This document shows positions 1-31,352 of a stretch of 64,000 bases of DNA, piece after piece (the first letter of the stretch is position 1; every line of letters starts with the position of its first letter). Source of the DNA: an uncultured Candidatus Binatia bacterium (GTDB taxonomy: Bacteria; Desulfobacterota; Binatia; HRBIN30); assembly GCA_964524885.1 (NCBI GenBank), contig CAZGEJ010000008.1, positions 53,462-117,461 on the forward strand, read 5' to 3'. A program made the position numbers and the translations under genes. Below the pieces are notes generated by a model that was not told the DNA's origin, made no database searches, and worked only from the letters and a program-made list of their open reading frames with translations.

Positions 1-3000
1 TCGACGTCCTTGACGAAGCCGATCCGGTCGGCGGCATGGCCGAGCAATTCGACGTCGTTGCCGCGAATGGTCGAGTCGGTGATCGTCATCGCGAGGTCTT
101 CGCGGTTGACGAGGAACTCGCAGCCGAACGGATCGCTGAAGCACGCCACCGGATCGCCGATGAGCTCGACCATCTCGTCGAGCAGCTGATCCAACGTCTC
201 CTCGAAGAAGGCCTGCAGAACCGCTTGGTCGCCCTCGGCCGCGGCCAGCTCTTCGAGGTCGAGGTCGAAGGTCAGGTCTTCGTTCTCGACGGTGATGTCG
301 ATATCGCCGGCGCGGTGCGAACTGCCCTCTTCCACGTGGGCCAGGATCTCGGCACCGGTGATCGTGACATTGAGGCCGCGGAGGAACATCGGCCCGGAAT
401 CGCCGATCGACGCATCGTTGAGCGGATCGGTGCCGGCGATGTTGCGGGTCGACAGCACGCCGGTTGAGGTGATCTCCAGGTCGACGTCGGCCTCGACGTC
501 GATTTCGCCGCCAAGCGTGAGAAGATCGCCGAAGGTCAGCTGGTCGACGATGTCGAGGGCATCATCGACGCTGTCGATCCCGAGGAAGTCGGCGATCGGC
601 GTGATCACCGACATCAGGTCGAAGTTGCCGATCGTATTGAGCACGCCGGTGACGGCGTCCAAGCCCGCGACCTGCAACAAGACGCTGAGGGAGACGCCGC
701 CGACGCTGGCGCCGAGGACGTCGTCGATATCGAGGGCGCCGATGATGTCGATCAGGTCGTCGAGGTTGAAGTCGCCGCTATCGGTCTGCAACTTGCCGCT
801 GATGACGACGTCGCCCGAGGTGGCGACGCCCTCTTTCTCGTCGGCGTCGATATCGATGTTGCCGTCGGGGATGAGGAGGTCTCCGAGTACCATGCTGCCG
901 GCGTCGGCATAGAGGGTGGCGCCGTTCTCGACGACGACGCGGCCGCCTTCGAGGTCGATGGTGCCACCGTCGGCGGTGACCGTCACGCCGTTCGGCACGG
1001 TGATCGTGCCGCCGGCGTCGAGTTCGACGTTGCCCTCGGACCCGAGGAGTTCCTCGAAGGCGAACTCTTGGAGGAACTCCACGAGTTCTTCCAGCGTGAT
1101 GGTGCGCTCGCCGGTGATGAGGCCGGCGAGGTCGAGGCTCACGTTGCTCTCGGTCGCGAGCAGGTTCGAGTTGGTCGTCAGATTGTCGCCCGCGGTACCG
1201 CGGATGTTCTCCGCCTCGACGAGAAGGCCCGCATTGATGGTGATGTCGCTGCCGGCTTCCAGCTCGATGTACCCGTCCGGAGCGTAGAGATCGGTCCTCA
1301 CCGTCAAGTCGTCGTCCGCCAGCATGCGGATGTTGCCGCCGTCGAGCGGCGCCAAATCGATCAGCACCTGGCTCAGGTTGGCGCCCGAACTGATCTGAAT
1401 GTCCTGCGCGTAGAGATTGACGTTGCTCGGGATGCTGACGTCGTTGCCGCCATGCAGGTAGACGTCGTGAGCGAAGCCGCCGCCGTCGGTGTCGACGACC
1501 GAGATCGTCCGGCCCGGGTTGATCGACAGCAGGCCGGTCGTCGTCGACACCTTGATGTCGCCATCGGTGACGATCAGGTCGATCGGCACGTTCTGTGCCA
1601 CGCCTGAAGTCCAATCGAGGCTACCGGCGTAGTACTTGAAACCCGGCGCCGCAAGGTCGATGCCGTTGCCGGCGGTAATCTTCAGCAGGGCTCCATCGTC
1701 GTCGACCGCGGGTCGCTCGACCTGCAAGGTCACGTTGCTGCCCGGATCGACCATACCGGTGCGCGCCGTCAGCGTCATGGCGCTCGGATTGCCGCCGCCA
1801 TCGGTGTCGAGGGTATCGAGGGTGATGCCGTTGGCCAGGGTGAGATTCCCGCCGGCCGTCAGCTTCATCGTGCCGTCCTTGGCGTTCAGGCTGAAGGGCA
1901 CGTCGAGGTTGACGCCCGACTCGAAGTCGATGCTGCCCGCCGTGTGAACCAGATTGGCAAGAGGCAGGCCGGTGCCACCGTAGAGGCGCAGGCGTCCGCC
2001 GTCATTGGTACGGGCCGCGGTTTCGGCTTCCAGGGTGACGCGACTGACCAGCGACAGCAAGCCGTCGGCCTCGAGCGTCAGGTTGCCCGAGTTGCCGCTA
2101 CCGTCGCTATCGAGGGTACTGAGCCTGGTGACGTCGTCGTCGAAGGTCAGGTCGCCGCCGACGACGATCGACATCGAACCGTCGGGGGTATTGAGGTTGT
2201 AGGGGACCTCCCACGCGGCGCCGGACTCGATATCCATGCTGCCGGCCTTGATCGAGGTGTTGTCGGCGGTGCTCAGGGTACCGCCAGCATGCAGGATCAG
2301 GTGGCCGCCGTCGTTGTTGCGATCGCTGCGTTCGGCCAGCACTTGCACGGCGGAGGCGAGGGTCAGATTGCCGCCGGCGTCGATGGTGAGGTCGCCGGCA
2401 TCGCCGCTACCGTCGGTGTCGCGGGTCGACAGCGTGATGCCTGTCGCCGTGGTGATGTTGCCGCCCGCCTCGATCTCGAGGTTTTTGTCGAGGGCGCTCA
2501 GGCTGAAAGGCAGGTGAATGCTGCCGGTGCCCGCATCGAACTCCATACCGCCGGCTTGCAGGTCGAGGGTGCTGGGGAACGAGATGCCCGAGGCGGAACG
2601 AAGGCGCACGTATCCACCGTCGTTGACCAGCGCCGAGTCTTCGGCATCGAGCACGGCACCGGTTTGGATCGTCACGGTGCCGCCGTTGGCGAAGAGTTCG
2701 ATGTTGCCGGCCTGCTCCTCATGGTCGTCGGTACGCAGGATCTTGCCAGCGTTGACGGTGATGTTGCCCCCGACGTCGGTCTCGATGTTGCCGTCGGAGG
2801 GGAGCAGGTCGCGCAGGAGGATGTCGGGCACGATGCCGCGCAGGCTGTCGTTGAGATCGTCGAGCCCGAGGAGGTCGAGGATCGCTTGGGCACCCGGAAT
2901 GTCCGAGGTCACGACGTCGACGCCGAGATCGGTCAGGGTGAAGAAATGGGAGGCCTCGAGAACATCGAGGAGGGTGGTGAAGCCGAGAGCATCACGCAGA

Positions 3001-6000
3001 TCGTTGAGGCTGGCACCGTTGTCGATGCCGGAGAGCCAATCGCTCAGGCTGATCTTGCCGCTGACGAGTTCGGACAGGGTCAACGAGTCCGGCAAACCGA
3101 TGAGGTCGCCGACGCCCGCTTCCTTGGCAGCCTGACCGACCAGCGAGAGGTCGAGTTCGACGTCGAGGCCGCCGTCGCGGATCAACTCACCTAGATCGAA
3201 GTCGGGGATGAGGTTGATGTAGTCGCCGACGGTGACCTCGTTGGCGATGGTGACCAGGTTGCCGTTGATGACGAGGTTGCCACCAGCCGACAGCTCCATG
3301 CTGCCGCTGTGATCGAGGAGATCGTGCAACCCGTAGACGGTGTCGCTGGCCGTCAGGTTGGCGTTGATCGTCAGGTTGCCGCCGGCGTCGAGGATGATCT
3401 GGTTGCGCGTCGTATCGATCGCGCTGCCGACCGTGACGTCGCCGTCCGCGGTGCCCTTGAAGGAGTGCCCGTCGATGTCGACCCCGGCTTGGATGACCAA
3501 GGTATCGGTGGCGTTGTCGGTGTCGTCATCGATCGTATCGATGCCGATGGCGCCCCAGACGGAGCCCCAATAGAGATCGCTGAGCGAGGGATCCGGCTCA
3601 CTTCCGTAGCCGTCGAAGCCGGCGAGCACGGTGATGTCGCCGCTGGTCGCCTGCAGATCGTTGCTGACGACGATGCCGTCGCCGGCGCGCAGGCTGATGT
3701 CGCCGCCGCGCGCGACCAGGTCGATGGGGACATTGAGGCTCGTTCCCGAACCGATGTCGATACCTTCGGCGAACAGCGTCAGGTTCGAGGGCAGCGAGAC
3801 GCCGGTGTTGCCGAAGAGCGTCACGTCGCCCGCCGGACTGCCCGGGTCCCCATCCGTATCCTCGGTCGACAGGGTCCGGCCGCTCGGCACGGTCAAGGTG
3901 CCGGCGGTGGTGATCTCCAGATCGCCGTCGGGGGTGCGCAGATCGACGGGGACGGTCCACGAAGCGCCGGTGGCGACGTTGAGGCTACCCGCCGTGATCG
4001 TCATCGTATTCGGCGTCGTCAATGCGCCCCCGGCCTGCACCGTGAGCTTGCCACCGTCATCGACGCGCCCGGTATGTTGCGTCAGCAGGCTGGTGTTGGC
4101 ACCGAAGGAAATCGCATCTCCTGCCTCCAGGGTCAGGTCGCCGGCGTTACCGCCCGCCGGATCGATGGTCGAGAGAGCGACGTTGGCGTTGACGGTGATG
4201 TCTTCGGCGGCCACGAGCTCGAGATCGCCGTCCGTCGCCGTCAAGCTGAGGGGGACGGTGAGGCTGGCACCCGATTCGATGTCGATCGCGCCCGCCGCGA
4301 ACGTCATGCTGCTTGGCAGGGTCACGCCCGAGGGGCCGTGCAGGATGACGCTGGCGCCATCACCGGCCTCGGCACTCTGATCGGCACGCAGGATCACGCC
4401 GGAGTTGACGATGACGCTGCCGCTGAAGTCGCCCGGATCATGGATCGAGATGCCCGCCCGCAGTTCGATGTTGCCGGACTGGTCGGTGTCGGTAGTATCG
4501 AGGGTCCTGCTCGAGCTGACCGTGACATTGCCGCGTCCCCAGACCTCGATGTTGCCATCGGAGGGGATCAGATCGCGGACGACCACGTGGGGGATGATGT
4601 CTTCGACGGGGATTTCGAAATCCATGCCGAAGGTATTCGTACCGTCGAAGAAGATCGAGTAGAGCGGTTCGAGAAGGTCGCGCAGCGGATCGATGGCGGC
4701 TTCGTTGAGAATGTCGACGAGGGTGCGATCGCCGAGGGCGGTGCGGGCATCATTCATCGAAGGAGTGCCCGGCAGGATGTCGCCGATGAGGTCTTCGACG
4801 GTGAACTGCCCTTCGATGAGGTCGGCGAGATTGACGCTGTCGGGCAGGTCGACGGTATCGAGGTTGCCGAGCAAGTCGAGGACGCTGTTGAGCGTATCTT
4901 CGACGCCGGTTAGGTCGACCTCGATGTCGAGATCGACGAGCTGGGCTAGGTCGTAGTCGCCATAGGCGGCGAGGTAACTCGACAGGCTGATCTCGTCGGC
5001 CGAGGTCGTCAGGTTGCCGTTGATGGTGACGGATCCTCCGGAGTCGATGTCGATGCTGCCACTCGAAACGCCCAGGTCGGTGAGACCGTGCGTGCCGTCG
5101 GAGGCGTTGAGGGTGCCGCTGATGTCGACGTTGCCGCCGGCGTCGAGGTCGATGGCATAGCGCGTGGCGGTCAGCGAGCCGTCGATGTCGAGGCCGTTAC
5201 CCGCGACCAGGGTGATGCCGGTTCCGCTCAGGTCCGCGCCCGTGCTGAGGTTGAGCGACCCCCCCGACGATGCGTACACGGAGCCATTGGTCGCCGCGAG
5301 GTCGACCGGGATGGTGAAGTCACCACTGCCGGTGGAAGCGAGGCTGAAGCTCCTGCCCCGGACGAGGCTCGTGCTCGGGATGGTGATGGACGACCCCTGG
5401 AGGGTGACCGTACCGTCGCCGGTGCTACCGTCCGAGTTCAGGGCCGACAGATCGACTCCGGTATTGAGTGTCAGGGCGCCGCCAGCGGTGACGCGAATGT
5501 CACCGTCCGGAGCCGTCAAGTCGTACGTCAGGGTCAAGGCGCCGCCCGAGGCGAGGTCGTACGAACCACCGTCGAGTGTCAGCCCCGTGCCGAGGGAAAG
5601 CGTTGCATCGGAAAGGAGGGAGATTTTGTTCCCATCGTTGGCGGCGCTGCCGTTGGCGTCGAGCGTGACGCCGTTGCCGATCGTCAGGTTTCCGACCGCA
5701 TCGAGGGTCAGGGCGCCGGCGGTACCGCCGCCATCGTCGAGGGTGGTCAGCGAGCGACCGTCGGGCACGCTCAGCGCCCCACCCACTACGATCGAGATGC
5801 CGCCGTCTTCGGCCGCCATGTCGAACGGAATCGTCAGATCGCTGGCCGAGGTGATTTGGTAAGCGCCGGCATCGATCGTCGTCGAGGCCGGCAGGGTCAG
5901 CGTGCCGCCGGCCAACAGGGCGACGGTGCCGCCGTTGTTGGCCCCGGGGCGATCCGCGTCGAGGGTGACCGATTCTTCGAGCAGGATGTGACCGCCGGCG

Positions 6001-8528
6001 GTGAGTCGGATCGAGCCGGCGGTGCCCGTCGTCGGAACGGTCGACAGCGTCACACCATCGAGAATCGCCAGGTCGCCTTTGACACTGATTTCGATGTCGC
6101 CGCTGGGGCTGAACATGTTGAAGGGGATGGTGAACCCGGCGAGCGACTCGAAGTCGAAGCTCCCGGCCACCGGGGTAAGGGTCGTCGGCGCAATCAATTC
6201 GCCGCCCGCGAGGAGCGACAGCTTGCCACCCAGGTCGGAGGTCGCGGCGTTACGCGCCACCAGATCGACGCCGCTGCCGAGAGTGAGGTCGATGCCGGCT
6301 TGCAGGGTGAGATCGTTCGAGCGACCGCCGCCGTCACTGTCGAGGGTCGACAGGTCGACGTTGTCGGACAGGGTCAGTCCCTCGGCGCTGTAGATGCGCA
6401 GGTCGCCGTCCGGCGTCGCAATGCTGTTGGTGATGGTCAACGCCCTGCCCGACTCGATGTCCAAGCTGCCGGCGTCGAGGGTGGTGGAGGACGGCAGGGT
6501 CAGTGCGCCGTCGGCGTGGATCGACACGGCGCCGCCGTCGTTGGTCGCGCTGCCGTTGGCGTCGATCGTCATGCCCGTGCCGAGGGTGAGGGCGCCCGTG
6601 GCGTCGAGAGTGATGTTGCCGGCGACGCCGCCCGCCGCGTCGACGGTGTTGACGGTCGTACCGTTGCTGAAGCTGAGGTCGCCGCGGACATGCACCTCGA
6701 TCGCACCATCGGGAGCCACGAGGTTGAACGGGATGAGCAGACTGGCGCCGGTGTCGATATCGATGCTGCCGGCGTCGAGGACGAGATTGACCGGTACGAG
6801 CAACTCGTCACCTGCGTTGAGCGTCACTTTGGCGCCGTCGTTGTTGGCACTGCCGTTGGCATCGATCGAGGCACCGGACTCGAGCGTCAGGTCGCCAGCG
6901 GCTTCGAGGCTCAGGGTGCCGGCGGTTCCCCCGGCACTATCGACCGTCGACAAGCTAGTATCGCTGGCGATCGTCAGGTTTTGGCCGCTCTTGATGGAAA
7001 TCGAACCATCCGGTGCGACCAAATCGATGGCGAAGCGCAGCGATGCGCCCGACTGGAGGGCGAACGAGCCACCTTCGAGCGTCATGTCGGCGGCGAGGTT
7101 CAAGGCATCGCCAGCCTTCAGAGTCACGGCACCGCCGTCGTTGGTCGAGGCCGAGTCGGCATCCAAGGTGGCCCCGCTGGCGATCGTCAAATCGTCACCG
7201 GCTTCGAGCGTGAGCGCACCGGCACGATCGCCGACGTTGGCGTCGGTGGTCAGCACTTGGCTGCCGCTGCCGATGGTGATGTCGTCGCCTGCCTTGAGGG
7301 TGAGGCTGCCCGCATTCTGTCCGGCGGTGGCATTGGAGGTGCGCAGGTCCGAGCCGCTGGCGACGGCGATCGAACCGGAGACGAACCACGACTCGCTGGC
7401 GCCGCCGGTATTGTAGCTCCCCGAGAGCTGCAGCAGGTCGACGTCGAGTTCGATGCCGGCGATGCCCGACACACCGGCCCCGCCGGTGAGCAGCGGCGTC
7501 GAGAAATCGAGGGAACCGCCGTTGCCGATTTGGAACGACGTATTTGCCATGGCGGCGCTGTCGACCGCCTCGACCGTGACGTTGCCGCCCGACTTCGAGC
7601 CCTTGGCGCGGGTGGCGATTTTGGCGCCGCCGCTGAGGCTGACTTCGTCCGCCTCGATGCGGATGTTGCCGCCGTCGACGGTATTGGACGCATCGCTGGC
7701 GATCGTACCGGAGACGCTGATGTCGTCCTCGGCGAGAATGACGATGTCGCCGTTCTCGACGGCGATTTGCGCGCCCGACGCGTAGCTGTTGGTGTTGACG
7801 ACGTCGGAGAAGCTCGGCGCGGTACCGGTGAAGACGGCACCCGATTGGATGGTGCCGGTGTGTTGAACGGCACCGGCATCGATGCGCACGTCGCCGATGG
7901 CGTTGACGGTACCGTCGATACGAACGACGCCGCGATCGTCGATCGGGGTGGTACCGAGCAGCACCTTACGCGCCTCGCTGTCACGCGGTGTCGTTCCGTC
8001 GAAGAAATCGTCGACGAAGTCCTTCGTCGAGGTGGCGACGGACAAGGTGCCGACGTTGACGACACCGCCGGAGCCGACGACGAAGCCGTTGGGGTTGGCG
8101 AAGTAGACGTTGCCGCCGATTTGCCCGCCCTTGATCGAATTGAGCACGCCGTGGATGTCGGTCTTTTCGTCGGTGACGATGTTGAGGAGGTTCTTGGTCG
8201 TACCTGGCAGGTGAAGATTGACCACCTTGCCGGTGTTGACGTCGAACCGGGTGAACGAGTTGAAGGCGTTGTCGCCGTTGACCGTGGTCGTCGTGACGTC
8301 GGTCACGTTGCCGGAGGTCGCGAACGAAGTGCCGGTGCGTCCGTCCGTCGCCATCGAGCCGTCGGCGCTGACGACCTGTGCCAGGGTGACGCTGCACAGG
8401 TGCGACAAGATGACGGTCGAGACCAGGGCTTGGCGGAGGATCTCGCGACGCAGGCGGCGCATGGTCCGACGCCGCCGCGCCGCTTGGCGCAATCGCAGCA
8501 ACTCTGTCGTTCGACGTCCTTCCACCAT
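1..8528 (-). CDS. Giant TpsA-like filamentous haemagglutinin family exoprotein (two-partner secretion substrate), partial; the 3' end lies beyond the window start
   Basis: Manual reverse-complement translation from ATG at 8528 gives MVEGRRTTELLRLRQAARRRRTMRRLRREILRQALVSTVILSHLCSVTLAQVV..., an extended Arg-rich signal peptide. The TPS-domain motifs follow: GDNAFNSFTRFDVNTGKVVNL, LLNIVTD, GGNVYFANPNGFVVGSGGVVNVGTLSVAT (matching NW.SFNIG / LNRV / NG.VFLINPNGI.FG / VNVG.L.AST of the haemagg_act domain). After that come long Gly/Asp/Thr/Leu-rich beta-helical repeats. The frame stays open to position 1. No listed minus-strand ORF shares this frame, and an open-ended ORF would not be reported by a stop-requiring ORF finder. 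An alternative start is the in-frame ATG at 8462 (MRRLRREI...). Confidence 0.8.
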   Translation of the reverse strand, partial: MVEGRRTTELLRLRQAARRRRTMRRLRREILRQALVSTVILSHLCSVTLAQVVSADGSMATDGRTGTSFATSGNVTDVTTTTVNGDNAFNSFTRFDVNTGKVVNLHLPGTTKNLLNIVTDEKTDIHGVLNSIKGGQIGGNVYFANPNGFVVGSGGVVNVGTLSVATSTKDFVDDFFDGTTPRDSEARKVLLGTTPIDDRGVVRIDGTVNAIGDVRIDAGAVQHTGTIQSGAVFTGTAPSFSDVVNTNSYASGAQIAVENGDIVILAEDDISVSGTIASDASNTVDGGNIRIEADEVSLSGGAKIATRAKGSKSGGNVTVEAVDSAAMANTSFQIGNGGSLDFSTPLLTGGAGVSGIAGIELDVDLLQLSGSYNTGGASESWFVSGSIAVASGSDLRTSNATAGQNAGSLTLKAGDDITIGSGSQVLTTDANVGDRAGALTLEAGDDLTIASGATLDADSASTNDGGAVTLKAGDALNLAADMTLEGGSFALQSGASLRFAIDLVAPDGSISIKSGQNLTIASDTSLSTVDSAGGTAGTLSLEAAGDLTLESGASIDANGSANNDGAKVTLNAGDELLVPVNLVLDAGSIDIDTGASLLIPFNLVAPDGAIEVHVRGDLSFSNGTTVNTVDAAGGVAGNITLDATGALTLGTGMTIDANGSATNDGGAVSIHADGALTLPSSTTLDAGSLDIESGRALTITNSIATPDGDLRIYSAEGLTLSDNVDLSTLDSDGGGRSNDLTLQAGIDLTLGSGVDLVARNAATSDLGGKLSLLAGGELIAPTTLTPVAGSFDFESLAGFTIPFNMFSPSGDIEISVKGDLAILDGVTLSTVPTTGTAGSIRLTAGGHILLEESVTLDADRPGANNGGTVALLAGGTLTLPASTTIDAGAYQITSASDLTIPFDMAAEDGGISIVVGGALSVPDGRSLTTLDDGGGTAGALTLDAVGNLTIGNGVTLDANGSAANDGNKISLLSDATLSLGTGLTLDGGSYDLASGGALTLTYDLTAPDGDIRVTAGGALTLNTGVDLSALNSDGSTGDGTVTLQGSSITIPSTSLVRGRSFSLASTGSGDFTIPVDLAATNGSVYASSGGSLNLSTGADLSGTGITLVAGNGLDIDGSLTATRYAIDLDAGGNVDISGTLNASDGTHGLTDLGVSSGSIDIDSGGSVTINGNLTTSADEISLSSYLAAYGDYDLAQLVDLDIEVDLTGVEDTLNSVLDLLGNLDTVDLPDSVNLADLIEGQFTVEDLIGDILPGTPSMNDARTALGDRTLVDILNEAAIDPLRDLLEPLYSIFFDGTNTFGMDFEIPVEDIIPHVVVRDLIPSDGNIEVWGRGNVTVSSSRTLDTTDTDQSGNIELRAGISIHDPGDFSGSVIVNSGVILRADQSAEAGDGASVILHGPSGVTLPSSMTFAAGAIDIESGASLTVPLSLTATDGDLELVAAEDITVNANVALSTIDPAGGNAGDLTLEAGDAISFGANTSLLTQHTGRVDDGGKLTVQAGGALTTPNTMTITAGSLNVATGASWTVPVDLRTPDGDLEITTAGTLTVPSGRTLSTEDTDGDPGSPAGDVTLFGNTGVSLPSNLTLFAEGIDIGSGTSLNVPIDLVARGGDISLRAGDGIVVSNDLQATSGDITVLAGFDGYGSEPDPSLSDLYWGSVWGAIGIDTIDDDTDNATDTLVIQAGVDIDGHSFKGTADGDVTVGSAIDTTRNQIILDAGGNLTINANLTASDTVYGLHDLLDHSGSMELSAGGNLVINGNLVTIANEVTVGDYINLIPDFDLGELIRDGGLDVELDLSLVGQAAKEAGVGDLIGLPDSLTLSELVSGKISLSDWLSGIDNGASLNDLRDALGFTTLLDVLEASHFFTLTDLGVDVVTSDIPGAQAILDLLGLDDLNDSLRGIVPDILLRDLLPSDGNIETDVGGNITVNAGKILRTDDHEEQAGNIELFANGGTVTIQTGAVLDAEDSALVNDGGYVRLRSASGISFPSTLDLQAGGMEFDAGTGSIHLPFSLSALDKNLEIEAGGNITTATGITLSTRDTDGSGDAGDLTIDAGGNLTLASAVQVLAERSDRNNDGGHLILHAGGTLSTADNTSIKAGSMDIESGAAWEVPYNLNTPDGSMSIVVGGDLTFDDDVTRLSTLDSDGSGNSGNLTLEADGLLSLVSRVTLEAETAARTNDGGRLRLYGGTGLPLANLVHTAGSIDFESGVNLDVPFSLNAKDGTMKLTAGGNLTLANGITLDTLDTDGGGNPSAMTLTARTGMVDPGSNVTLQVERPAVDDDGALLKITAGNGIDLAAPGFKYYAGSLDWTSGVAQNVPIDLIVTDGDIKVSTTTGLLSINPGRTISVVDTDGGGFAHDVYLHGGNDVSIPSNVNLYAQDIQISSGANLSQVLIDLAPLDGGNIRMLADDDLTVRTDLYAPDGYIELEAGSDITINAGLLVEAENIRGTAGDNLTTNSNLLATESNVSLDLAGLITGERTITLEELVEFLQEFAFEELLGSEGNVELDAGGTITVPNGVTVTADGGTIDLEGGRVVVENGATLYADAGSMVLGDLLIPDGNIDIDADEKEGVATSGDVVISGKLQTDSGDFNLDDLIDIIGALDIDDVLGASVGGVSLSVLLQVAGLDAVTGVLNTIGNFDLMSVITPIADFLGIDSVDDALDIVDQLTFGDLLTLGGEIDVEADVDLEITSTGVLSTRNIAGTDPLNDASIGDSGPMFLRGLNVTITGAEILAHVEEGSSHRAGDIDITVENEDLTFDLDLEELAAAEGDQAVLQAFFEETLDQLLDEMVELIGDPVACFSDPFGCEFLVNREDLAMTITDSTIRGNDVELLGHAADRIGFVKDV

Positions 8529-8530
8529 AG

Positions 8531-8538
8531 CCCCCCCC
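8531..8538 (-). repeat. Homopolymeric G8 tract (C8 on the plus strand) 2 nt upstream of the tpsA ATG, within or replacing the Shine-Dalgarno region
   Basis: Plus strand reads ...ccaccatag cccccccc tg...; on the minus strand this is caGGGGGGGGctATGgtg. Confidence 0.7.
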
Positions 8539-8617
8539 TGTCGCTCGATCGTCGTGCTCATGGATCCGAAATCCCGATTGGTCTTCGTCGCTAGGCTGGC
8601 GTCACGCATGATCGTCC

Positions 8618-11600
8618 TCACTCCGGATCCGTGCAGTCGACGCGGAATCGCGCCGTGCCGCGGCCGTTGAGAGCCGCTGAACACGACGGCCGCGCATCTT
8701 GGCAGAAGCCGATGCCTGCCGTCGGGCAACTCGGTGCCTCGCAGCCGTCACCATCCTCACCACCCGTCGGAGTACAAGTCGTAAAGCCCTCCTGGCCGAT
8801 GTACTCCCAGCAGCAATCGCCGAAGGTGGGGAACCCGGTCCATCCGCCGTCGGCGGCGATGCCCACCTGGTCGATGTTGTCGAGCGGGGCGTCGGCCTGG
8901 ATCCGACACGTGGTCACGGCATTGTCCGACAGATTGTCGTCGTTCGGTGTCAGGTTGAGCGTCAGGCGTCCCCCCGGCCACTCCGCCGGGTCGACCGAGC
9001 CGCCATCGCTGCTGGTGACGCTGAAGCGGTGTGTACCCTGCGGGCAGCAGATCCCTGGGCTCTGGCAGAGCCCGGAGCCGTTGCAGCGCTCGACTCCGTC
9101 ACAGGCGCGATTGTTGCTCGTGCACACGGAGCCGAACGCGTCGTTGCCGTTGCAGTCGTCCGCGTCCTCGCGGCATTGTTCGCTACAGTCCGAATCGCCG
9201 TCGACTCCGGGGCATGGATTGCCCGAGCCCACGCAGGCTCCGGCGCCATTGCACGAAGAAGTGCTGGTACAGAACAGGCCGTCATTACACGGCTTACCGC
9301 TTGGGTTGTTGCCGGTGCAGGAGTACGTTCCGCCGGTTTCGACACAGGCCTCCGTGCAGTCGGAGCTGTTGAGGCCTTCGTCGACCAGCGACTGGCACGG
9401 ATCGTTGCTGCCGACACAAATGCCGGTCGCGTTGCAGCGGTCCGTCGTCGTGCACGCCAGGCTGTCGTTGCAACTCGAGTTGAGCGGGTCGTTGCCGTTA
9501 CAGTCGTCATTCGCTTCGCGGCACTGTTCACTGCAATCGCCGTCGCCATCGGCGCCCTGGCACGGCGTGCCGGTACCGATGCAGAAGCCGTCGCCGTCGC
9601 AGCGATCGGTGGCGGTGCAGAACAAGCCATCGTTGCACGACACGTTGGCCGGGTCGTTGGTCGAGCAGTCGTCCTCCGCCTCGTTGCAGCGCTCCGAGCA
9701 GTCGCCGTCGCCATCCGGTCCTGGGCACGGATCGCCGGCATGGACGGTACAGGCACCGGCACTGCACCGGTCGGTACCGTTGCAGAAGGTACCGTCCGAG
9801 CAGTTGCTGAGATTGGCATCTTGCGCCGTACAGCTGCCGACGCCGATACAGCCATAGCCGCTGCAGGCCGTCTCGTCGGCGCACGCCTCGCTGCAATCGC
9901 TGTCCAGGTCGCCCAGCTTGAACTGATTCGCGGGCAGGTAACACGGGTCGTTCGGGTCGTCCGGGTCGCTGCCGATGATACAACGCTTGTTGCACGGATC
10001 GGCGCTGCGTACGCACGCACCCGCGCTGCACTTGTCGGCATCGCCGTTGCAGAAATCGTCGTCTCGGCAATCGAGGGCATCAGCCGACACGGCGGTGCAG
10101 CTCGACGTCGCTTCGTCGCAGGCATCTTGGCACGTCGCCGACAAGCCTACGCCGCGACCCAGCAAATCCTTGCTGTCGCCCGGACAGGGCGGCGCGCCGC
10201 CTTGGCATGTGCCGGCGACACAGAAGTCCTGCGCCACGGTGATGTCGGTGCCGTCGATCGAGAACACCTCCGAGGCGCAGGCGCGAGCGGCGCAGCGCCC
10301 ACCGTTCGGACAGTCCGCGTTGCCGGCACAAGGCTTGCCGGCGTCGGGTCCGTCGCAAACGTCGGCGCAGTTGTTGCTGCGGCAGTCCGAGTCCTGCGTG
10401 CAAGCGTTGCCGACGTCCGCGCCGGTGCAGAACAGTTGGTCGTTGCAGGGGGTGCCGTCCGGATCGGGGAAAGTGCAGGTGTTGGCGAACTCGTCACACG
10501 ACTCGCTGCAATTGATGTCGTCGTCGCCGCCATAGGCGCCGCCGTTGGGACAGGGATCGATGTTTTCGCTGACGCACAGACCGCCGGCGCAGACCTCGGT
10601 GCCGTTGCAGAACAGGCGATCGTCGCATGAGGAGCCATCCGGGTCATTGCCCGTGCAGGCATCGGCGCTTTCGTCGCACGTCTCGGAGCAGTCGGTGTCG
10701 GCATCGGGTCCGGCACACGGATCACCCGTGTGAATCGTGCAGGAGCCACCGCTGCACGTATCGTTGCCATTGCAGAAGAATCCGTCGTCGCATGGCGCCT
10801 GGTTGGCCTCGTGGCTGCAAGCGCCGAAGCCGTTGCACTCGTCGTCCGTGCACTGGTTGTCGTCGCTTTCGCAGACCTTGCCGGCAGGGGCGTAGCCGTT
10901 GTCGCGACAGCTGCCGCTGCCGTTGCAGGTGTCCTGCACGACACAGGCGCTACCCGGGTCGCCACATGGCGTTCCGGAGATTTCGAAGTTCGGGCGACAG
11001 ACCCCGGCACCGTTACACGAATCGGGGTTGTTGCATTCGGTATCCGTGCCGTCGCCGCACGTCGTACCGGCATCGACGAAGCCCTGGTCGAGACACTCGC
11101 CGGAACCGTCGCAGGTATCTTGGTTGATGCACTCGGTGCCCGTATCGCCGCAGGCCGTACCTACGGGCATGTCGTTGTCGCCGCACGCGCCGGCACCGTC
11201 GCAGGAGTCGGGTGCCGTACAGGCATTCGAGGTGGGATCGCCGCAGGTCGTGCCGGCCGACTTGAAGCCCTGATCGGCGCATTGGCCGCTGGCATCACAG
11301 GTGTCTTGGTTGGTGCACTCGGTGCCGGCGTCACCGCAATGGCTGCCTACCGTCGCGTGGTTGACGGCACAGGTACCGGAGCCGTCGCAGGTGTCGGGAT
11401 TGGTGCATTCGGTATCCGACGCATCGCCGCAGGGTGTACCGGCCGCGACGAAGCCGGCGTTGCGACATTGGCCGAAGCCGTTGCAGGTGTCCTGGACGAC
11501 GCACTCGCTGCCGGCGTCGCCGCAATCGGTGCCGCTGACGGCATGGTTGCCCTGGCAGGTACCGGCTCCGTCACAGGTGTCGGGGTTGGTACAGGCGTCG

Positions 11601-14296
11601 TCGGTAGGATCGCCGCAGGTCGTGCCAGAGGGGCGGAAGCCGTTGTCGCTACAGCTACCGCTACCGTCGCAGGTATCCTGCACGGTGCACTCGTCGCCGG
11701 CGTCGCCGCACGTCGCTCCCGACGGGGCGTCGTTGGCCAGACAAGTCCCTGCCCCATCGCAGGCGTCGGGGTTGGTGCATTCGCTGTCGAGGGCCGAGCC
11801 GCAGGTGGTTCCCGCCGAAAGGAAACCGTTGTCGACGCAGCTACCGTCACCGTTGCAGGTATCTTGCACGGTGCACTCGTCGCCGGCGTCGCCGCACGCG
11901 GTGCCCACGCTCAAGTCGTTGTCCTGGCAGGTACCGGCACCGTTACAGGTATCCTGAGCGCTGCACTCCGTCGCCGGGTCGCCGCAGGTCGTGCCGCTCA
12001 CCTTGAAGCCGTTGTCGCTGCACGCACCGGTGCCGTCGCAGGTATCTTGGTTGACGCATTCGGTGCCGGCGTCGCCGCACGAAGCTCCGGCCACGAGGTC
12101 GTTCGGCTGGCAGCTGCCCGTGCCGTCACAGGTATCCTGGCCACTGCATTCGGTCGCAGCATCACCACACGTTGTGCCGCTCGGCCGGAAGCCCTGGTCG
12201 GAGCAACTCCCCGTGCCATCGCAAATGTCCTGGACGGTGCACTCGTCCCCGGCATCGCCACACGGCGTACCATGCGAGCGAAAGCCGTTGTCCGAACAGG
12301 TGCCAGCACCGTTGCAGGTATCCTGCACGGTGCACTCGTCCCCGGCATCGCCACAGGAGGTACCGGCGGCGAGGAAACCGTTGTCAGAGCAACTGCCGGT
12401 GCCGTCGCAGGTATCCTGCACCGTGCATTCGTTGCCGGCGTCGCCGCAGGTCGTGCCCGTGGGCAAGTCATTGGGAACGCACGAGCCCGTGCCGTTGCAC
12501 GTATCCTGGCCGCTGCATTCGTTGGCTGGATCGCCGCAGGTCGTGCCGGAGGCGACGAAGCCGTTGTCGGTGCAGCGCCCCGACCCATCACAGAGGTCCT
12601 GGTTGGTGCACTCGTCCCCGGCATCGCCGCAGGTCGTGCCGGCGGAGCGATGGTTCACTTGGCAACTACCGGCGCCATCGCAGGTGTCTTGTTCGGAGCA
12701 TTCCGTCCCTGGGCTGCCGCAGCTCGAGCCGGCGGGGGCGAAGCCATTGTCGACGCAACTGCCGGTGCCGTCGCAAGTGTCGCGCAGGGTGCATTCCGTG
12801 CCCGGATCACCGCAGCCGGTACCCGGCGCCAGATCGTTGGCGAGACAGCTGCCGGCACCGTCACAGGTATCTTGCTCGGAGCACTCGGTGGCCGGATCGC
12901 CGCAGGCCGTGCCGGCGGTGGCGAAGCCATTGTCGACGCAGCTTCCCGAGCCGTCGCAGGTGTCTTGTAGCGAGCAGGCATCGGGGTCGCCGCCACAGGC
13001 GGTTCCGGCGGGCAGGTCGTTGGCGATGCAGTTGCCGTTCCCATCGCAGGTATCGGCCAGGCTGCAGCCGTTCGCCGAGGCGTCGCCGCAGGTGGTGCCG
13101 AAGGGAGCGGCCATGTTGATGCAACCGCCCGAGCCGTCGCACGCGTCGACCGTACACGGGTTGCCGTCGTCGCATTCGACGTCGGGGTTGGTGCCGACCT
13201 GCACCGGCAGGCACGCGCCGTCGGCACCGCCCGTCTTGTCGCCGACGCAGGCCATGCAGCCGGAGTCACAACGGGCATCGCAACAGACGCCATCGCTGGA
13301 GCAGATGCCGGACTGACACTGATCGTCGCTGCCGCAGGCGCGGCCGAGAGGTGCCGGCGTTTGGGTCGGCGTGGCGGAAGGCGGGGGCGAGACGAGCGGC
13401 GGCGAGGTGGCGGTCGGCGTCGGCGTCGGCACGCTCTGGTACATCGATTCGTGCAGGAAGTCGGCGCAGGTGTCGACGCTGTCACGCGTGCAACTCTGCA
13501 GACTGGTCAAGTCGTTGCCGCAGGTGTCGAGGCCCGTGCTCAGCATGCCGGTGTCGCAGCGCTTGGCGATGCCGCCGGCGAGCTTGTCGAGGACGCCGAC
13601 GTACTGCTTGTACATCGGGTTGTTGGCGGCATCGACCTGGCTGCAATCGACGCTCTCCCAGCCGGGACGCTGGCGGTCCTTGTTGAACTGGCACTTACCG
13701 CGCAGCTGCAACACCTTGACGCCGTACTTGCGCGCTTCCTTGCCGACCGCCTTCTGGCAGCTGATCGCGGCGCGATCGTCGAGACCGGCTGTCGGCGTAC
13801 CGTAAACGTCGGTGACGATGCCTTCGATGCAGGCATCGGCGAGACACTTGAGGCATTTGCCTACGTCACTGTATCGCTTCAGTTCGGGGACGAAGGCATC
13901 GCAGGGGGCGGGGCAACCGGCGAAGCCGAGCGCCGCCGGGCCGACGGGGGCGTCGGCGTCGCAGCGCGAGGTCATGCGGCTGAAGGCAGAAGCCGTCTGA
14001 CCGGCGATGGCGTCGATGCCGTCGCCGTAACCGGCGGCAACCCAGGTGCTGGGATCGGCGCAGTCGAGCGTCGGCGGTGGCGGCAGGTCACCGGCCATTT
14101 GGTCGGCGTAGCAGTCGGTGTAGACGCGCAACACTTTGTCGAAATAGGCGCCGGCGCTGCTGTTGATGGCGCGGCGGCACTTGGCGCCGCCCGAGTCGAG
14201 CTGCCCCTCCTGGGCACCCGCGAAGTAGAGGGTTCCGGCGCCGATGCCGAACGCGAGAATCAATCCGAGTCGGATCACCGTGTTGCGTGTGCGCAT
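8618..14296 (-). CDS. Secreted cysteine-rich tandem-repeat protein (1892 aa): N-terminal Cys-containing domain, Pro/Thr linker, ~21 tandem ~31-aa four-Cys repeats, then ~10 C-x-D-x-x-F-C-N-G...PC (DUF4215-like) units
   Basis: ORF with signal peptide MRTRNTVIRLGLILAFGIGAGTLYFAGAQ and GGGGG 9 nt upstream of the ATG. Repeats such as CGDPATECSEQDTCDGAGSCLANDLAPGTG recur in tandem. The C-terminal half carries CDDGFFCNGNDTCSGGSCTIHTGDPC-type units. These resemble Myxococcales cysteine-rich repeat proteins. Confidence 0.8.
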   Translation of the reverse strand: MRTRNTVIRLGLILAFGIGAGTLYFAGAQEGQLDSGGAKCRRAINSSAGAYFDKVLRVYTDCYADQMAGDLPPPPTLDCADPSTWVAAGYGDGIDAIAGQTASAFSRMTSRCDADAPVGPAALGFAGCPAPCDAFVPELKRYSDVGKCLKCLADACIEGIVTDVYGTPTAGLDDRAAISCQKAVGKEARKYGVKVLQLRGKCQFNKDRQRPGWESVDCSQVDAANNPMYKQYVGVLDKLAGGIAKRCDTGMLSTGLDTCGNDLTSLQSCTRDSVDTCADFLHESMYQSVPTPTPTATSPPLVSPPPSATPTQTPAPLGRACGSDDQCQSGICSSDGVCCDARCDSGCMACVGDKTGGADGACLPVQVGTNPDVECDDGNPCTVDACDGSGGCINMAAPFGTTCGDASANGCSLADTCDGNGNCIANDLPAGTACGGDPDACSLQDTCDGSGSCVDNGFATAGTACGDPATECSEQDTCDGAGSCLANDLAPGTGCGDPGTECTLRDTCDGTGSCVDNGFAPAGSSCGSPGTECSEQDTCDGAGSCQVNHRSAGTTCGDAGDECTNQDLCDGSGRCTDNGFVASGTTCGDPANECSGQDTCNGTGSCVPNDLPTGTTCGDAGNECTVQDTCDGTGSCSDNGFLAAGTSCGDAGDECTVQDTCNGAGTCSDNGFRSHGTPCGDAGDECTVQDICDGTGSCSDQGFRPSGTTCGDAATECSGQDTCDGTGSCQPNDLVAGASCGDAGTECVNQDTCDGTGACSDNGFKVSGTTCGDPATECSAQDTCNGAGTCQDNDLSVGTACGDAGDECTVQDTCNGDGSCVDNGFLSAGTTCGSALDSECTNPDACDGAGTCLANDAPSGATCGDAGDECTVQDTCDGSGSCSDNGFRPSGTTCGDPTDDACTNPDTCDGAGTCQGNHAVSGTDCGDAGSECVVQDTCNGFGQCRNAGFVAAGTPCGDASDTECTNPDTCDGSGTCAVNHATVGSHCGDAGTECTNQDTCDASGQCADQGFKSAGTTCGDPTSNACTAPDSCDGAGACGDNDMPVGTACGDTGTECINQDTCDGSGECLDQGFVDAGTTCGDGTDTECNNPDSCNGAGVCRPNFEISGTPCGDPGSACVVQDTCNGSGSCRDNGYAPAGKVCESDDNQCTDDECNGFGACSHEANQAPCDDGFFCNGNDTCSGGSCTIHTGDPCAGPDADTDCSETCDESADACTGNDPDGSSCDDRLFCNGTEVCAGGLCVSENIDPCPNGGAYGGDDDINCSESCDEFANTCTFPDPDGTPCNDQLFCTGADVGNACTQDSDCRSNNCADVCDGPDAGKPCAGNADCPNGGRCAARACASEVFSIDGTDITVAQDFCVAGTCQGGAPPCPGDSKDLLGRGVGLSATCQDACDEATSSCTAVSADALDCRDDDFCNGDADKCSAGACVRSADPCNKRCIIGSDPDDPNDPCYLPANQFKLGDLDSDCSEACADETACSGYGCIGVGSCTAQDANLSNCSDGTFCNGTDRCSAGACTVHAGDPCPGPDGDGDCSERCNEAEDDCSTNDPANVSCNDGLFCTATDRCDGDGFCIGTGTPCQGADGDGDCSEQCREANDDCNGNDPLNSSCNDSLACTTTDRCNATGICVGSNDPCQSLVDEGLNSSDCTEACVETGGTYSCTGNNPSGKPCNDGLFCTSTSSCNGAGACVGSGNPCPGVDGDSDCSEQCREDADDCNGNDAFGSVCTSNNRACDGVERCNGSGLCQSPGICCPQGTHRFSVTSSDGGSVDPAEWPGGRLTLNLTPNDDNLSDNAVTTCRIQADAPLDNIDQVGIAADGGWTGFPTFGDCCWEYIGQEGFTTCTPTGGEDGDGCEAPSCPTAGIGFCQDARPSCSAALNGRGTARFRVDCTDPE

Positions 14297-14827: not shown

Positions 14828-15895
14828 GTGTCCCATCGTTTCGCCCGACTCTGCGTGCTCAGCATGTTGGCCGCCGTGGCCTTCATCTGGATCCGCCGTC
14901 CAGCGGTCGAGCCACCGGTGCACGTACGCGAGTTCGTCTCCGAGGCCCTGACTCTCGACGGCATCTACCGTTCGATGCGCGGGCCGACGAGCAGCCGGAC
15001 CATCCAGATCGACCCGGCCCAGCCGCCGCGCCGCATCTGGATTCGCGGCGTCGATGTCGAACCCGTTGCCGCCGACGGCTCCGTGCTGCCGGACGGCCAG
15101 CAATTCATTTGTCACGTCAATCTGTCGTATCCCGATCGCGAGTCCTGGCTACGCGATCTCGAACCCATGGAGCGCCAGGGGCGCTGGCTGCCCTTCAACC
15201 AGTTCACCTTGGTGCAAGGGCACTACTCCATCGACTTCCCCCCAGGCTTTGCCCTACCCGCCTCCTCCGATCAGCCCTTCCGCTTGCTGACGATGGCGCA
15301 AAATCAGGATCCGGCGCGCGACCCCTTCGCCCTGCACATCCGCTCGCGGCTGCGCTTCCACTACGACGACGAACTGCCTCAGCCCCCCATCCCGCTCAAC
15401 AAGCTCTCTTGGGACATCCGCGTGCCCGCCCCTTACGTTCCCGAGGTGCACGACCCGTTGCGCGCCGGCGAGAGTTGCGCCGGCGACGACCCGATCCTCG
15501 GTGCCGAGGGCACGCCGCCGGTGCTGCACTTCGCCGTACCGCCCGGCCGGCACGAGTATCGCAGCGTCGTCGACGGGGTCACCAAGATCCCGTTTCCGAC
15601 GACGGCGCACCACATTTCGGCGCACCTACACGTCTATGGGGTATCCCTCGAACTACGCGACCAGACGGCCGACCGGACCTTGTTCAAGAGTCTCGCCACG
15701 ACCAACCCGTCGGCCACCGGAATCGTCGAGATGACCCACTATTCGAGTGCCAGCGGCCTGCCGCTCGATCCGACGCACCGTTACGAGTTGATCGCCATCT
15801 ACGACAACCCGACGCCGCACGTGGTCGACGCCATGGCCGTCGTTTACATCTATTACAGAGACGTCCCGCCCGGCTCCGGCGAGCAGGCCTCGTGA
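14828..15895 (+). CDS. Hypothetical membrane-anchored protein (355 aa, N-terminal TM helix), first gene of a three-gene operon
   Basis: GTG start with GGAGGG 6 nt upstream; N-terminal hydrophobic segment LCVLSMLAAVAFIWI. The stop overlaps the next start (GTGA). Confidence 0.6.
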   Translation: MSHRFARLCVLSMLAAVAFIWIRRPAVEPPVHVREFVSEALTLDGIYRSMRGPTSSRTIQIDPAQPPRRIWIRGVDVEPVAADGSVLPDGQQFICHVNLSYPDRESWLRDLEPMERQGRWLPFNQFTLVQGHYSIDFPPGFALPASSDQPFRLLTMAQNQDPARDPFALHIRSRLRFHYDDELPQPPIPLNKLSWDIRVPAPYVPEVHDPLRAGESCAGDDPILGAEGTPPVLHFAVPPGRHEYRSVVDGVTKIPFPTTAHHISAHLHVYGVSLELRDQTADRTLFKSLATTNPSATGIVEMTHYSSASGLPLDPTHRYELIAIYDNPTPHVVDAMAVVYIYYRDVPPGSGEQAS

Positions 15896-16764
15896 GTCCT
15901 TTCAGGATCCCATGGGCGCCTGCGGTCGACGGCCCCACGGAGCGCCGCCGGCAGGTCGACGCCTTCGCCACGCTGCTGCTGGCGATCGTCGCCGTCGAGT
16001 ATTGGTCGCGTGGCATCCCGAAGTGGAACGACCTCGGCCCGCAGTACGTCGGGACCGCCGTGCTCGTCAGCGTGCTGGCGCTGCTGGGCATCGCGTGGCC
16101 GCGAACGCGCCGTAGCGTCTGCGCCGTCATCACCGGGCTGCACGTCGGCATCATCGTCGCCGAGTTTCCCGAAGCGGCGAATCACTCGTACTTGGAGGCG
16201 ACCCTCTGCGGCTTGGTGGCCCTGCTCGACGTCCGGCGCGACGAGGAGGTGGTGCTGCTGCGCGATGCGGCCCGAGTTCTCTTCGCCATCGTCTTGTTCT
16301 ACGCCGGCCTGCAGAAACTCCTGAGCGGCTACTGGTTCGCCGGGCAATACCTCGCCTTCTCCCTGGCGCGTCCGTCCTTCCAGCCCGTCCTCGCGCCGCT
16401 CCTCACGGCCGACGAATTCGCGCGTCTGACGGCCTACGGCGGCGCCGTCGGCGATGGTCCGTATCGGGTCGAGACGCCGCTTTTCCTGCTCGCCTCGAAC
16501 GCGGTCTACATCGCGGAGATGGCCTTGGCGCCGCTGTTGCTGTGGCAACGGGCGCGCGTCCTGGCGGCGCTCGCCGCGATCGCCCTGATCGTCATCATCG
16601 AAATCGCCGCGCGTGAGTTCTTCTTCGGATTGGTCTTTCTCAACCTGGCGTTGCTCTTCCTGCCGTCGTCCTGGCATGGGCGCGCCCGCTGGCCCGGCGC
16701 CGCGGCACTCGCCTACCTTCTGCTCGTGCGCCTCGGCGTCGCGCCGGCGATGGTGTTCCAGTGA
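15892..16764 (+). CDS. Polytopic integral membrane protein, unknown function (~290 aa). A weak, unverified resemblance to HTTM/SdpB-like membrane proteins
   Basis: GTG at 15892 overlaps the upstream TGA. Translation VSPFRIPWAPAVDG... contains many hydrophobic helices. It is reported in the track only as the C-terminal part of the mis-started ORF 15109..16764. Confidence 0.55.
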   Translation: MSPFRIPWAPAVDGPTERRRQVDAFATLLLAIVAVEYWSRGIPKWNDLGPQYVGTAVLVSVLALLGIAWPRTRRSVCAVITGLHVGIIVAEFPEAANHSYLEATLCGLVALLDVRRDEEVVLLRDAARVLFAIVLFYAGLQKLLSGYWFAGQYLAFSLARPSFQPVLAPLLTADEFARLTAYGGAVGDGPYRVETPLFLLASNAVYIAEMALAPLLLWQRARVLAALAAIALIVIIEIAAREFFFGLVFLNLALLFLPSSWHGRARWPGAAALAYLLLVRLGVAPAMVFQ

Positions 16765-17225: not shown

Positions 17226-17417
17226 GCCGGCGGCACGGCCCGCGGATGATTTGACCCGCGAAACCCATGCGCTAGGGTGCCGACGGACTTTGGGGTACGC
17301 GATCCATGCCCACGGAGGAGAGAGGAACGCGCCGGCCGGCCACGGCCCGCGCAGGCGGTGGTGGGCGTCAGGGCACGCGTGGCCCGACGCGGCGCACCGT
17401 CCGCTTCCACGACTGAC

Positions 17418-21548: not shown

Positions 21549-21592
21549 GGCACCCCTGCGCGCCGGCCGTGCCGCGGCGAGGCCGGCCAGGC

Positions 21593-26770: not shown

Positions 26771-27598
26771 TCAGGAACGCCGGGCGCGCGCCACCATGCG
26801 ATCGGCGAGTGCATTGGTGAGACGACGCGGCAGCAACTTCTGCAACCACCAGGCGAAACGGGCGCGCCGGCCCGGGATGATCAGAAACTGTCCACGCTCG
26901 AGGCGGTCGATCATGTAACGGCAGCCCGCATCGAGGTCGACCACGCCGGCGAACAACTTCATCGCCGCCGTCTCCGGCGGGCGATCGCGCCGCTCGGACC
27001 GTGCCATCGGCGTGTCGATCTCGGGCGGACAGATCAGGCTCACCGCGATGCCGCGGGGTCGGCATTCGGTCCGCAGCACGCTACCCAACCCGACGACGGC
27101 ATGCTTCGACGCGGCGTAGCCGGCCTGACCATAGGCGGTGGTCAGGCCGGCGAGAGAAGCGACGAGGGCCAGATGCGAACCCGCCTGCATGTGCGGCAAT
27201 ACGGCAGCCGCCAAGTGGCGCGTACCGAATACGTTGATCCGCACCATGTCCTCGAACCGCTGCGCCGGAAATTCGAGAAACGGGCGCGAGAACCCGCCGA
27301 CGCCGGCGGCGTGGAAGACCACCCGCGGCGGACCGAGGTCGCCGACGACCCGTTCGACCGCAACGGCCAAGCCGGCGGCGTCGGTGACGTCGACGATTTC
27401 CGTCAGCACGACCTGCGCCGCGGAGCGCCGGTTCGCTTCGATCGCCGCCACGACCGCAGCATCGAAATGGCGGTCGAACAATGACAGCGATGCACCCCGA
27501 CCGGCATAGAGTTCGGCCACGCGACGCCCGATGCCGCTACCGGCGCCGGTGACGAGGACGTGATCCCAGCTGGCGCCCGACATGCGACTCACCCGCAT
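26771..27598 (-). CDS. Short-chain dehydrogenase/reductase (SDR)
   Basis: TGAGSGIG Rossmann motif and a YxxxK catalytic motif (YAASK); overlaps the upstream regulator gene by 10 bp. Confidence 0.8.
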   Translation of the reverse strand: MRVSRMSGASWDHVLVTGAGSGIGRRVAELYAGRGASLSLFDRHFDAAVVAAIEANRRSAAQVVLTEIVDVTDAAGLAVAVERVVGDLGPPRVVFHAAGVGGFSRPFLEFPAQRFEDMVRINVFGTRHLAAAVLPHMQAGSHLALVASLAGLTTAYGQAGYAASKHAVVGLGSVLRTECRPRGIAVSLICPPEIDTPMARSERRDRPPETAAMKLFAGVVDLDAGCRYMIDRLERGQFLIIPGRRARFAWWLQKLLPRRLTNALADRMVARARRS

Positions 27599-31278: not shown

Positions 31279-31352
31279 AACGGTTGGCGTAGTCCAGTGT
31301 GCCCGCGGAGACGCGGTCGTCTTGCGTGCTCCGCCACGGGAAGGAGTCCGCC

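Follow-up and report, generated by a model that had tools for sequence, protein, structure and literature searches.

What gene lies at the left end of a 64,000-nucleotide stretch of DNA from an uncultured Candidatus Binatia bacterium (contig CAZGEJ010000008.1, positions 53,462 to 117,461 of the forward strand; the whole stretch is called the window hereafter), where numerous long open reading frames (ORFs) overlap on both strands? A first-pass annotation had proposed that these ORFs conceal a giant exoprotein of the two-partner secretion (TPS) type, a TpsA, whose unseen C-terminus could carry a polymorphic toxin domain. Our analysis leads us to read the leftmost 8.5 kb as the 5' portion of a gene whose product is a giant secreted TpsA-type passenger (type Vb secretion), an assignment to which we give a probability of roughly 0.8; the specific role of the protein is proposed with lower confidence. 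A gene with a TPS domain is of a known kind and would not surprise a specialist in secretion systems, but its passenger body is unusual and nearly orphan.

A single giant open reading frame at the window edge

Translation of the minus strand from window position 8528 down to position 1 produced one stop-free frame of 2,842 codons, which exits the window at base 1. This frame, which makes up the window's largest gene, is missing from the ORF list, as the first-pass annotation had recognized: the program that generated the list omits ORFs running off an end. Measured from stop to stop, the frame extends up to 8747 and has in-frame ATGs at 8609, 8561 and 8528. When the start is set at 8528, the length and sequence of the N-terminus agree with those of its relative P0027 (see below), which favors the ATG at 8528 as the most likely start codon. 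The upstream gene, encoding a cysteine-rich protein, ends 89 bp before this codon on the same strand, and the intervening spacer contains the two further in-frame ATGs; immediately ahead of 8528 it has a run rich in G. Neither a promoter-like nor a terminator-like site was detected in this spacer by a scan around the two genes, which was a weak consensus scan only.

The window has a GC content of about 66%, and in a genome of this composition the GC content of the giant frame at the first, second and third codon positions (0.63/0.47/0.86) represents a coding signature. The ORFs overlapping it (5088-8594, 3309-4913, 1944-3194 and 6394-7416 on the plus strand, and 778-1614 and 7250-8065 on the minus strand) all show permutations of this pattern, for example 0.85/0.53/0.60 in 5088-8594 and 0.54/0.60/0.85 in 6394-7416, and the three longest ORFs on the plus strand obtained no match in Pfam. 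These permuted values confirm that the long overlapping ORFs are shadow frames of one real gene, which bears out the earlier view of the plus-strand ORFs over 36-8594 as antisense artefacts.

The N-terminal TPS secretion domain

A scan of the protein against the Pfam and TIGRFAM libraries, the check that had been proposed for an N-terminal TPS domain, recovered PF05860 (45.1 bits against a gathering score of 33.5; e-value 1.6e-11) and TIGR01901 (44.4 bits against a cut-off of 29.1), both above their thresholds. PF05860 was the sole Pfam family detected at e-values ≤0.01 in the visible 2,842 residues. The NCBIfam model NF012204 (adhes_FxxPxG, "leukotoxin LktA family filamentous adhesin") was matched with 150.5 bits, its cut-off being 60. 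The motifs by which the domain had originally been noticed are all present, namely NAFNSF (residues 87-92), LLNIV (114-118), GGNVYFANPNGFVVG (138-152) and VNVGTLSVAT (157-166). The NPNG turn of TPS domains is known to be crucial for folding and secretion (PMC5422565), and an alignment of 22 family members revealed that its glycine (G148) is invariant and its proline (P146) nearly so, with the hallmark positions being kept in the window protein. Searches with the N-terminal 420 residues recovered 26 homologs with identities of up to 53%, many of which carry the NCBI name 'leukotoxin LktA family filamentous adhesin'.

A single-sequence phmmer search with the N-terminus against the PDB sequences recovered nothing meaningful, but the profile derived from the 22-sequence alignment did detect TpsA proteins with solved structures, i.e. 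EtpA (3e-10), HxuA (3e-5) and HMW1 (1e-4). An AlphaFold2 (AF2) model of the region attained a confidence score (pLDDT) above 90 over residues 60-230, and when this model was compared with the PDB using Foldseek the top 22 matches were all TpsA secretion domains (HMW1, HxuA, EtpA, FHA and HpmA). The classical TpsA structures, namely those of Bordetella FHA/FhaB (1RWR), H. influenzae HMW1 (2ODL), EtpA of enterotoxigenic Escherichia coli (8CPK/8VBA) and HxuA (4I84), were matched with e-values of 9e-7 to 2e-3 and a probability of 1.00, at identities of only 14-16%. Together, sequence, profile and predicted fold confirm the N-terminus as a genuine TPS secretion domain, whose right-handed β-helix is supported on a predicted model rather than an experimental structure. 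Going by the sequence matches, this domain is of the 'LktA-family filamentous adhesin' class (NF012204) and not of the CdiA class.

The first 50 residues of the protein contain 26% arginine with a net charge of +10, and a hydrophobic core follows the arginine-rich part; both features are conserved with P0027, and the AF2 model shows one long helix spanning residues 5-45. The Pfam model for extended signal peptides, ESPR (PF13018), was unmatched in the giant protein. Judged by eye, this segment is presumed to be an extended Sec signal peptide.

Repeat arrays and acidic linkers in the passenger body

A self-comparison of the whole protein with BLAST returned the identity match only. BLAST searches with successive chunks of the protein and an iterated repeat HMM were used instead, and these revealed a diverged repeat of about 100 residues with the consensus SATNDGGKVTLNAGGGLTLPSTLTLDAGSIDIESGASLTVPIDLAAPDGDIEIEAGGDLTISSGLTLSTLDTDGGTAGNLTLEAGGNL: the offsets between chunk matches are multiples of about 100 residues, and in the first array the repeat HMM scores 76-100 bits per unit. 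The repeat copies are 26-49% identical to each other at the protein level, and on visual inspection each unit appears to comprise about four rungs of about 25 residues each. The repeat model obtained 28 matches in total, which correspond to about 14-15 well-formed units plus degenerate copies, and these are distributed over three arrays (Table 1). The acidic linkers that follow the arrays are paralogous to each other, linkers 1 and 2 being aligned at an offset of about 585 residues, and a homology search with the linker module (residues ~1110-1380) found no database homolog. In an AF2 model of residues 1040-1480 the repeat parts form β-coils with a pLDDT of 80-97 (85-97 over residues ~1330-1480), and the linker is modeled as low-confidence helices (pLDDT 31-53), suggesting that the acidic linkers are probably helical or flexible. 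In a fold search with this repeat-linker model none of the matches was significant (best e-value 0.099), but right-handed β-helix proteins dominated the list.

Beyond the third linker, BLASTP aligned residues 2670-2840 to residues 394-547 of the intact relative at locus L038 (32% identity, e-value 8e-10), and the same C-terminal visible stretch also aligned to residues 401-463 of L066; weak library-wide matches (P0029-P0032) likewise fall on residues 2666-2842. In typical relatives this module, recognizable by 'VLSTRNIAG...GDSG...', comes directly after the TPS domain. The approximately 2,300 residues of arrays and linkers thus appear to have been inserted after the TPS domain and ahead of the usual body of the family. 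If the remainder of the protein resembles that of typical relatives (>3,600 residues), the whole protein would measure about 5,500-6,000 residues.

An alternative reading is that the frame is non-functional or an artefact: a pseudogene in decay, repeats wrongly joined during assembly, or a frame that is open by chance in GC-rich DNA. High-GC DNA does give rise to long spurious ORFs, like the shadow ORF of 1,168 residues at 5088-8594, and several relatives appear fragmented; however, the frame remains open over 8.5 kb with a strong coding signature at the third codon position, its TPS domain is conserved, and its N-terminus is intact and agrees with that of P0027. Furthermore, the giant gene has no long tandem repeats at the DNA level, which indicates that the arrays are old duplications, and the divergence of the repeats at the protein level makes a collapse or expansion during assembly unlikely. 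On these grounds we consider an artefact to be exceedingly improbable.

Table 1. Coordinates of the giant gene, the segments of its product and the adjoining gene
Feature	Residues	Window position	Strand	Remarks
Giant TpsA-type gene, visible 5' part	 	1..8528	-	2,842 codons; 3' end past left window edge
Arg-rich extension and hydrophobic core (ALVSTVILSHLCSVTLAQ)	1-50	8379..8528	-	Composition, P0027 alignment
TPS secretion domain	60-303	7620..8351	-	PF05860
NCBIfam NF012204 core	76-222	7863-8303	-	150.5 bits
NPNG motif within FANPNG (143-148)	145-148	8085..8096	-	Conserved TPS β-turn motif
Array 1	366-1184	4977..7433	-	Six full units (461-1045), degenerate units on both sides
Linker 1 (acidic)	1185-1315	4584..4976	-	16% Asp, 17% Leu; unmatched by repeat HMM
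Array 2	1316-1762	3243..4583	-	About three full units (1388-1632) plus degenerate units
Linker 2 (acidic)	1763-1905	2814..3242	-	15% Asp, 21% Leu
Array 3	1906-2578	795..2813	-	4-5 full units (1968-2454) plus degenerate units
Linker 3 (acidic)	2579-2665	534..794	-	18% Asp, 16% Leu
Onset of family-type body ('VLSTRNIAG...GDSG...' module)	2666-2842	3..533	-	BLASTP to L038, L066
Spacer, 89 bp	 	8529..8617	-	Cys-rich gene stop (8618-8620) to ATG 8528
Cys-rich secreted repeat protein gene	 	8618..14296	-	1,892 aa, 11.6% Cys (~220 Cys)

Relatives of the giant protein

Our family survey covered one genome per GTDB species, in which 145 stretches relate to the TPS region, and the best 80 of these 145 were kept as loci with a flank of 10 kb. 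The giant genes outrun this flank, leaving the downstream side out of view almost everywhere. The best 80 loci show 33-52% identity to the TPS region and come from the Beta-, Gamma- and Alphaproteobacteria, Desulfobacterota, Negativicutes, Limnochordia, Halanaerobiales, Omnitrophota, Planctomycetota, Elusimicrobiota and Acidobacteriota. In 43 of the 80 the frame runs on without a stop for more than 3,500 residues past the start, up to the end of the flank, and the intact gene at L038 encodes 3,667 residues, suggesting that gigantism is the norm in the LktA-like class. The L038 protein contains NF012204 together with 17 stretches of NF012206 (LktA_tand_53; 295 bits), and no Pfam domain at all.

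An exhaustive HMMER search with residues 1900-2842 against 1.84 billion representative proteins recovered six matches at e-values ≤0.001, among which only P0027 was strong. This protein is identical to that of locus L004 and derives from a metagenome-assembled genome of the Terriglobales (Acidobacteriota; contig DASPMH010000322.1). It is the only relative sharing the inserted body, and a database relative was seen for the region of array 3 only. Identity between the two proteins is 50% for the TPS region and 32-36% across the repeat arrays, both have the NF012204 N-domain and both are devoid of LktA_tand_53 repeats; neither gene has a TpsB gene in view upstream, and both have regulators combining a winged helix-turn-helix (wHTH) domain with a STAND-type ATPase in their vicinity. 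They differ in that P0027 ends at the end of its contig (1,798 residues visible) and has no Cys-rich neighbor, and in the placement of the regulators. Two of them lie directly upstream of the TpsA gene in L004 (3697-7305 and 6639-9848, both on the minus strand), whereas that of the window, which has the same architecture (Trans_reg_C and AAA_16; 27589-30663, minus strand), is located about 19 kb from the TpsA gene. Such wHTH and STAND proteins may be a regulator class for these giant genes. The window's regulator was also considered as a conserved partner of the giant gene; at 29% identity over 584 residues to one of the two regulators in L004 and a distance of 19 kb this was rejected, and it is kept as a lead only.

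In several relatives (L002, L003, L015, L022, L044 and others) the giant genes look fragmented, with the TPS-encoding ORF spanning about 500-570 residues. Very large ORFs are found downstream of it, with 2,491/1,119+ and 3,648+ residues in L002/L003, and in L003 a gene resembling an integrase or transposase (HTH_38 and rve domains) is inserted after the TPS part. The fragmentation may reflect gene decay, the insertion of insertion sequence elements, or sequencing frameshifts in long repetitive genes.

Comparison with known systems and the toxin question

Beyond the fold and the NPNG motif of the TPS domain, the window protein resembles the classical TpsA adhesins in its long repetitive passenger, which is predicted to be β-helical. 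It differs from them in lacking the NPNL motif of the FHA subfamily and the Pfam hemagglutinin repeats, in having no adjacent tpsB, and in the segmentation of its body by acidic linkers.

The closest known counterpart in terms of the N-domain subclass is LktA of Fusobacterium necrophorum, a giant toxin encoded in the lktBAC operon, which is a type Vb system (bioRxiv 10.1101/534297, PMC11350119). The NF012204 match and the naming of its homologs as 'leukotoxin LktA family' could suggest that the window protein is a secreted cytolysin or leukotoxin acting in the manner of LktA, and the last ~170 visible residues do align with the module that follows the TPS domain in typical members of the family. 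However, it is the secretion domain alone that it has in common with the toxin: the LktA_tand_53 repeats, of which L038 has 17 stretches, are absent in view, and about 2,300 residues of unrelated ~100-residue arrays and acidic linkers follow its TPS domain. Likewise, the upstream gene encodes a Cys-rich repeat protein and not an lktB-type product as would be expected from the lktBAC order, and NCBI itself names the class 'filamentous adhesin'. The family is spread over free-living environmental lineages, in which toxicity to leukocytes is implausible, and in the environmental, high-GC context of the window a toxic activity of the protein appears unlikely. We accordingly regard an LktA-like toxin as very unlikely.

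The suggestion that the C-terminus could carry a polymorphic toxin domain would make the protein a CdiA-like agent of contact-dependent toxin delivery, with a toxin domain and an immunity gene lying out of view. Its N-terminal TPS domain and very large size are shared with CdiA and BcpA, its C-terminus is indeed past the window edge, and the C-termini of the relatives diverge after about 2,600 residues, which is compatible with variable ends. Against this, the visible 2,842 residues contain no CdiA-type FHA-1 or FHA-2 repeats (Fil_haemagg and Fil_haemagg_2; PF05594, PF13332), no PT-VENN or other pretoxin domain, no DUF637, no toxin domain, and no VENN, ELYN, NEALV or similar motif. Moreover, the TPS domain is of another subclass, namely the LktA-like NF012204 class, no cdiB is found upstream and no cdiB or cdiI is in view, and the full-length relative at L038, the one intact relative examined, has no Pfam toxin domain. 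The toxin claim thus finds no support in the visible part of the protein, and we consider CdiA-like delivery quite unlikely.

Proposed export and probable role

Returning to the TpsA-type passenger, the presumed arginine-rich extended signal peptide would direct the protein through the Sec machinery. In the periplasm, a TpsB transporter of the Omp85 type, encoded outside the window, would recognize the TPS domain (residues ~60-303, with the NPNG turn) through its POTRA domains. The passenger would then be threaded out, folding progressively into a long right-handed β-helical fiber, in which the three arrays of ~100-residue repeats, joined by the three acidic, Asp/Leu-rich linkers, would precede the family body beginning at residue ~2666. 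By analogy with its class, the most likely role of such a protein is that of a non-enzymatic surface or extracellular fiber, functioning in adhesion, aggregation or matrix formation in an environmental high-GC diderm bacterium.

Several points weigh against this interpretation. A family-specific TpsB HMM, searched against all ORFs of the window at e-values ≤100 with filters turned off, found no TpsB in the 64 kb, and the closest relative, L004, is also without a TpsB in its 10 kb upstream. The 53-residue repeats of NF012206 were not found in the visible 2,842 residues. The C-terminus, which is probably half or more of the protein, lies past the window edge, and an effector or toxin located there would be out of view. 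Finally, the adhesin function is read from class and fold only, and the signal peptide was called by eye only.

The putative TpsB partner and the upstream Cys-rich gene

No gene called in the other 55 kb of the window contains any of the Pfam domains ShlB, POTRA_2 and Omp85. Hence, the 'two-partner' label given by the first-pass annotation depends on the TPS domain, as no TpsB is encoded in the window. An outer membrane protein with a DUF1302 domain (31299-33236) was considered as a substitute for TpsB and rejected, as it gives no POTRA or ShlB signal. Using an HMM built from TpsBs that were found by clustering upstream ORFs, a TpsB with ShlB and POTRA_2 domains was seen adjoining the giant gene in 11 of the 80 loci, being directly upstream on the same strand in 10 of them and about 2 kb upstream on the opposite strand in L045. 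This indicates that the LktA-like family is TpsB-linked. Unlinked arrangements of tpsA and tpsB have been documented, and some TpsB proteins serve more than one TpsA (PMC5422565). Given that the giant genes outrun the flanks and the downstream side is out of view, the missing partner is most simply explained by a tpsB located downstream or at a distance.

The sharing of TpsBs between several TpsAs, the rarity of an adjoining TpsB among the relatives and its absence from the 55 kb upstream would also accord with an orphan TPS protein devoid of a dedicated TpsB, which uses a shared or promiscuous Omp85 protein or forms a two-protein surface system with the Cys-rich giant. Other relatives carry OmpH/Skp, OmpA or two-component genes instead of TpsB, and the Cys-rich gene, in the same orientation, ends 89 bp upstream, the spacer showing no terminator-like site. 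However, a downstream or distant tpsB is simpler, with that side being out of view for the window's gene and almost all of its relatives, and the adjacency of the Cys-rich gene is unconserved, being absent at every relative including L004. An orphan of this kind appears highly improbable to us. A related reading, in which the protein is an undescribed segmented β-helix fiber, its orphan repeat arrays hinged by the acidic modules, and is encoded in an operon with the Cys-rich giant rather than with TpsB, both forming a two-giant-protein surface system that has borrowed a TPS domain and is served by an unlinked or shared outer membrane transporter, is unlikely as well. We retain the TpsA-type passenger with its tpsB probably located elsewhere.

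The Cys-rich protein is an orphan giant in its own right. After a signal-peptide-like N-terminus come a linker rich in Pro and Thr, some 30 copies of the 31-residue unit 'CGDxxxECxxQDTCDGxGxC', which correspond to a 93-bp tandem period in the DNA, and then other Cys-rich repeats. It obtained no match in Pfam, NCBIfam or the PDB, its first 330 residues have no homolog, and no counterpart was found near any of the 80 relatives' loci. Its gene may be co-transcribed with the TpsA gene, but conservation lends no support to a functional link between the two.

Other genes in the relatives' loci and in the window

Across the 80 loci, the recurrent upstream neighbors include a hybrid histidine kinase (19 loci), a LuxR-type response regulator (11) and OmpA-family proteins (6). 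OmpH/Skp is encoded immediately upstream in at least five loci (also in L001 and L003), and regulators with BTAD, AAA_16 and TPR modules are present in four. The adjacency of Skp could point to a dedicated periplasmic chaperone for giant passengers.

The window also contains a second giant ORF at 54546-60242 on the plus strand (1,898 residues) with coding-like GC values of 0.52/0.61/0.81. Its product displays a signal-peptide-like segment, repeats of about 150 residues rich in Gly, Thr, Ser and Ala, a linker rich in Pro and Thr, and at the C-terminus a domain containing Cys residues; it has no Pfam match and a sub-threshold match to NF033662 ('acidic double-disulfide repeat') at residues 1593-1621, and is probably another large surface protein. 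A protein of 936 residues encoded at 21002-23812 on the plus strand combines multiheme cytochrome c motifs (Cytochrome_C7, Paired_CXXCH_1 and Cytochrome_C554) with C-terminal TPR repeats, and genes for a cytochrome c assembly protein and a DsbA-like protein are located at 43701-45182 and 42263-43618. The segment 14297-17276, between the Cys-rich gene and the gene for the Kup potassium transporter (17277-19376), holds ORFs with no clear annotation: 14828-15895 on the plus strand has a coding-like GC content at the third codon position and no Pfam match, and 15109-16764 on the plus strand has only a sub-threshold match to HTTM (23.1 bits against a cut-off of 27.7).

Implications

These observations correct the gene map of the window, the largest gene of which had been hidden by an ORF list that drops edge-spanning frames; the approximately 10 long overlapping ORFs at the left end are its shadow frames and should stay unannotated. 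The LktA-like class of TPS proteins gains a divergent and very large member, and its 'leukotoxin' name is misleading, as it designates a mostly environmental family of giant fiber proteins. With an adjacent tpsB seen in only 11 of 80 loci, the absence of such a gene is no reason to reject TpsA calls in this class. More generally, a TPS secretion module can bear a passenger body that is nearly without relatives in public data.

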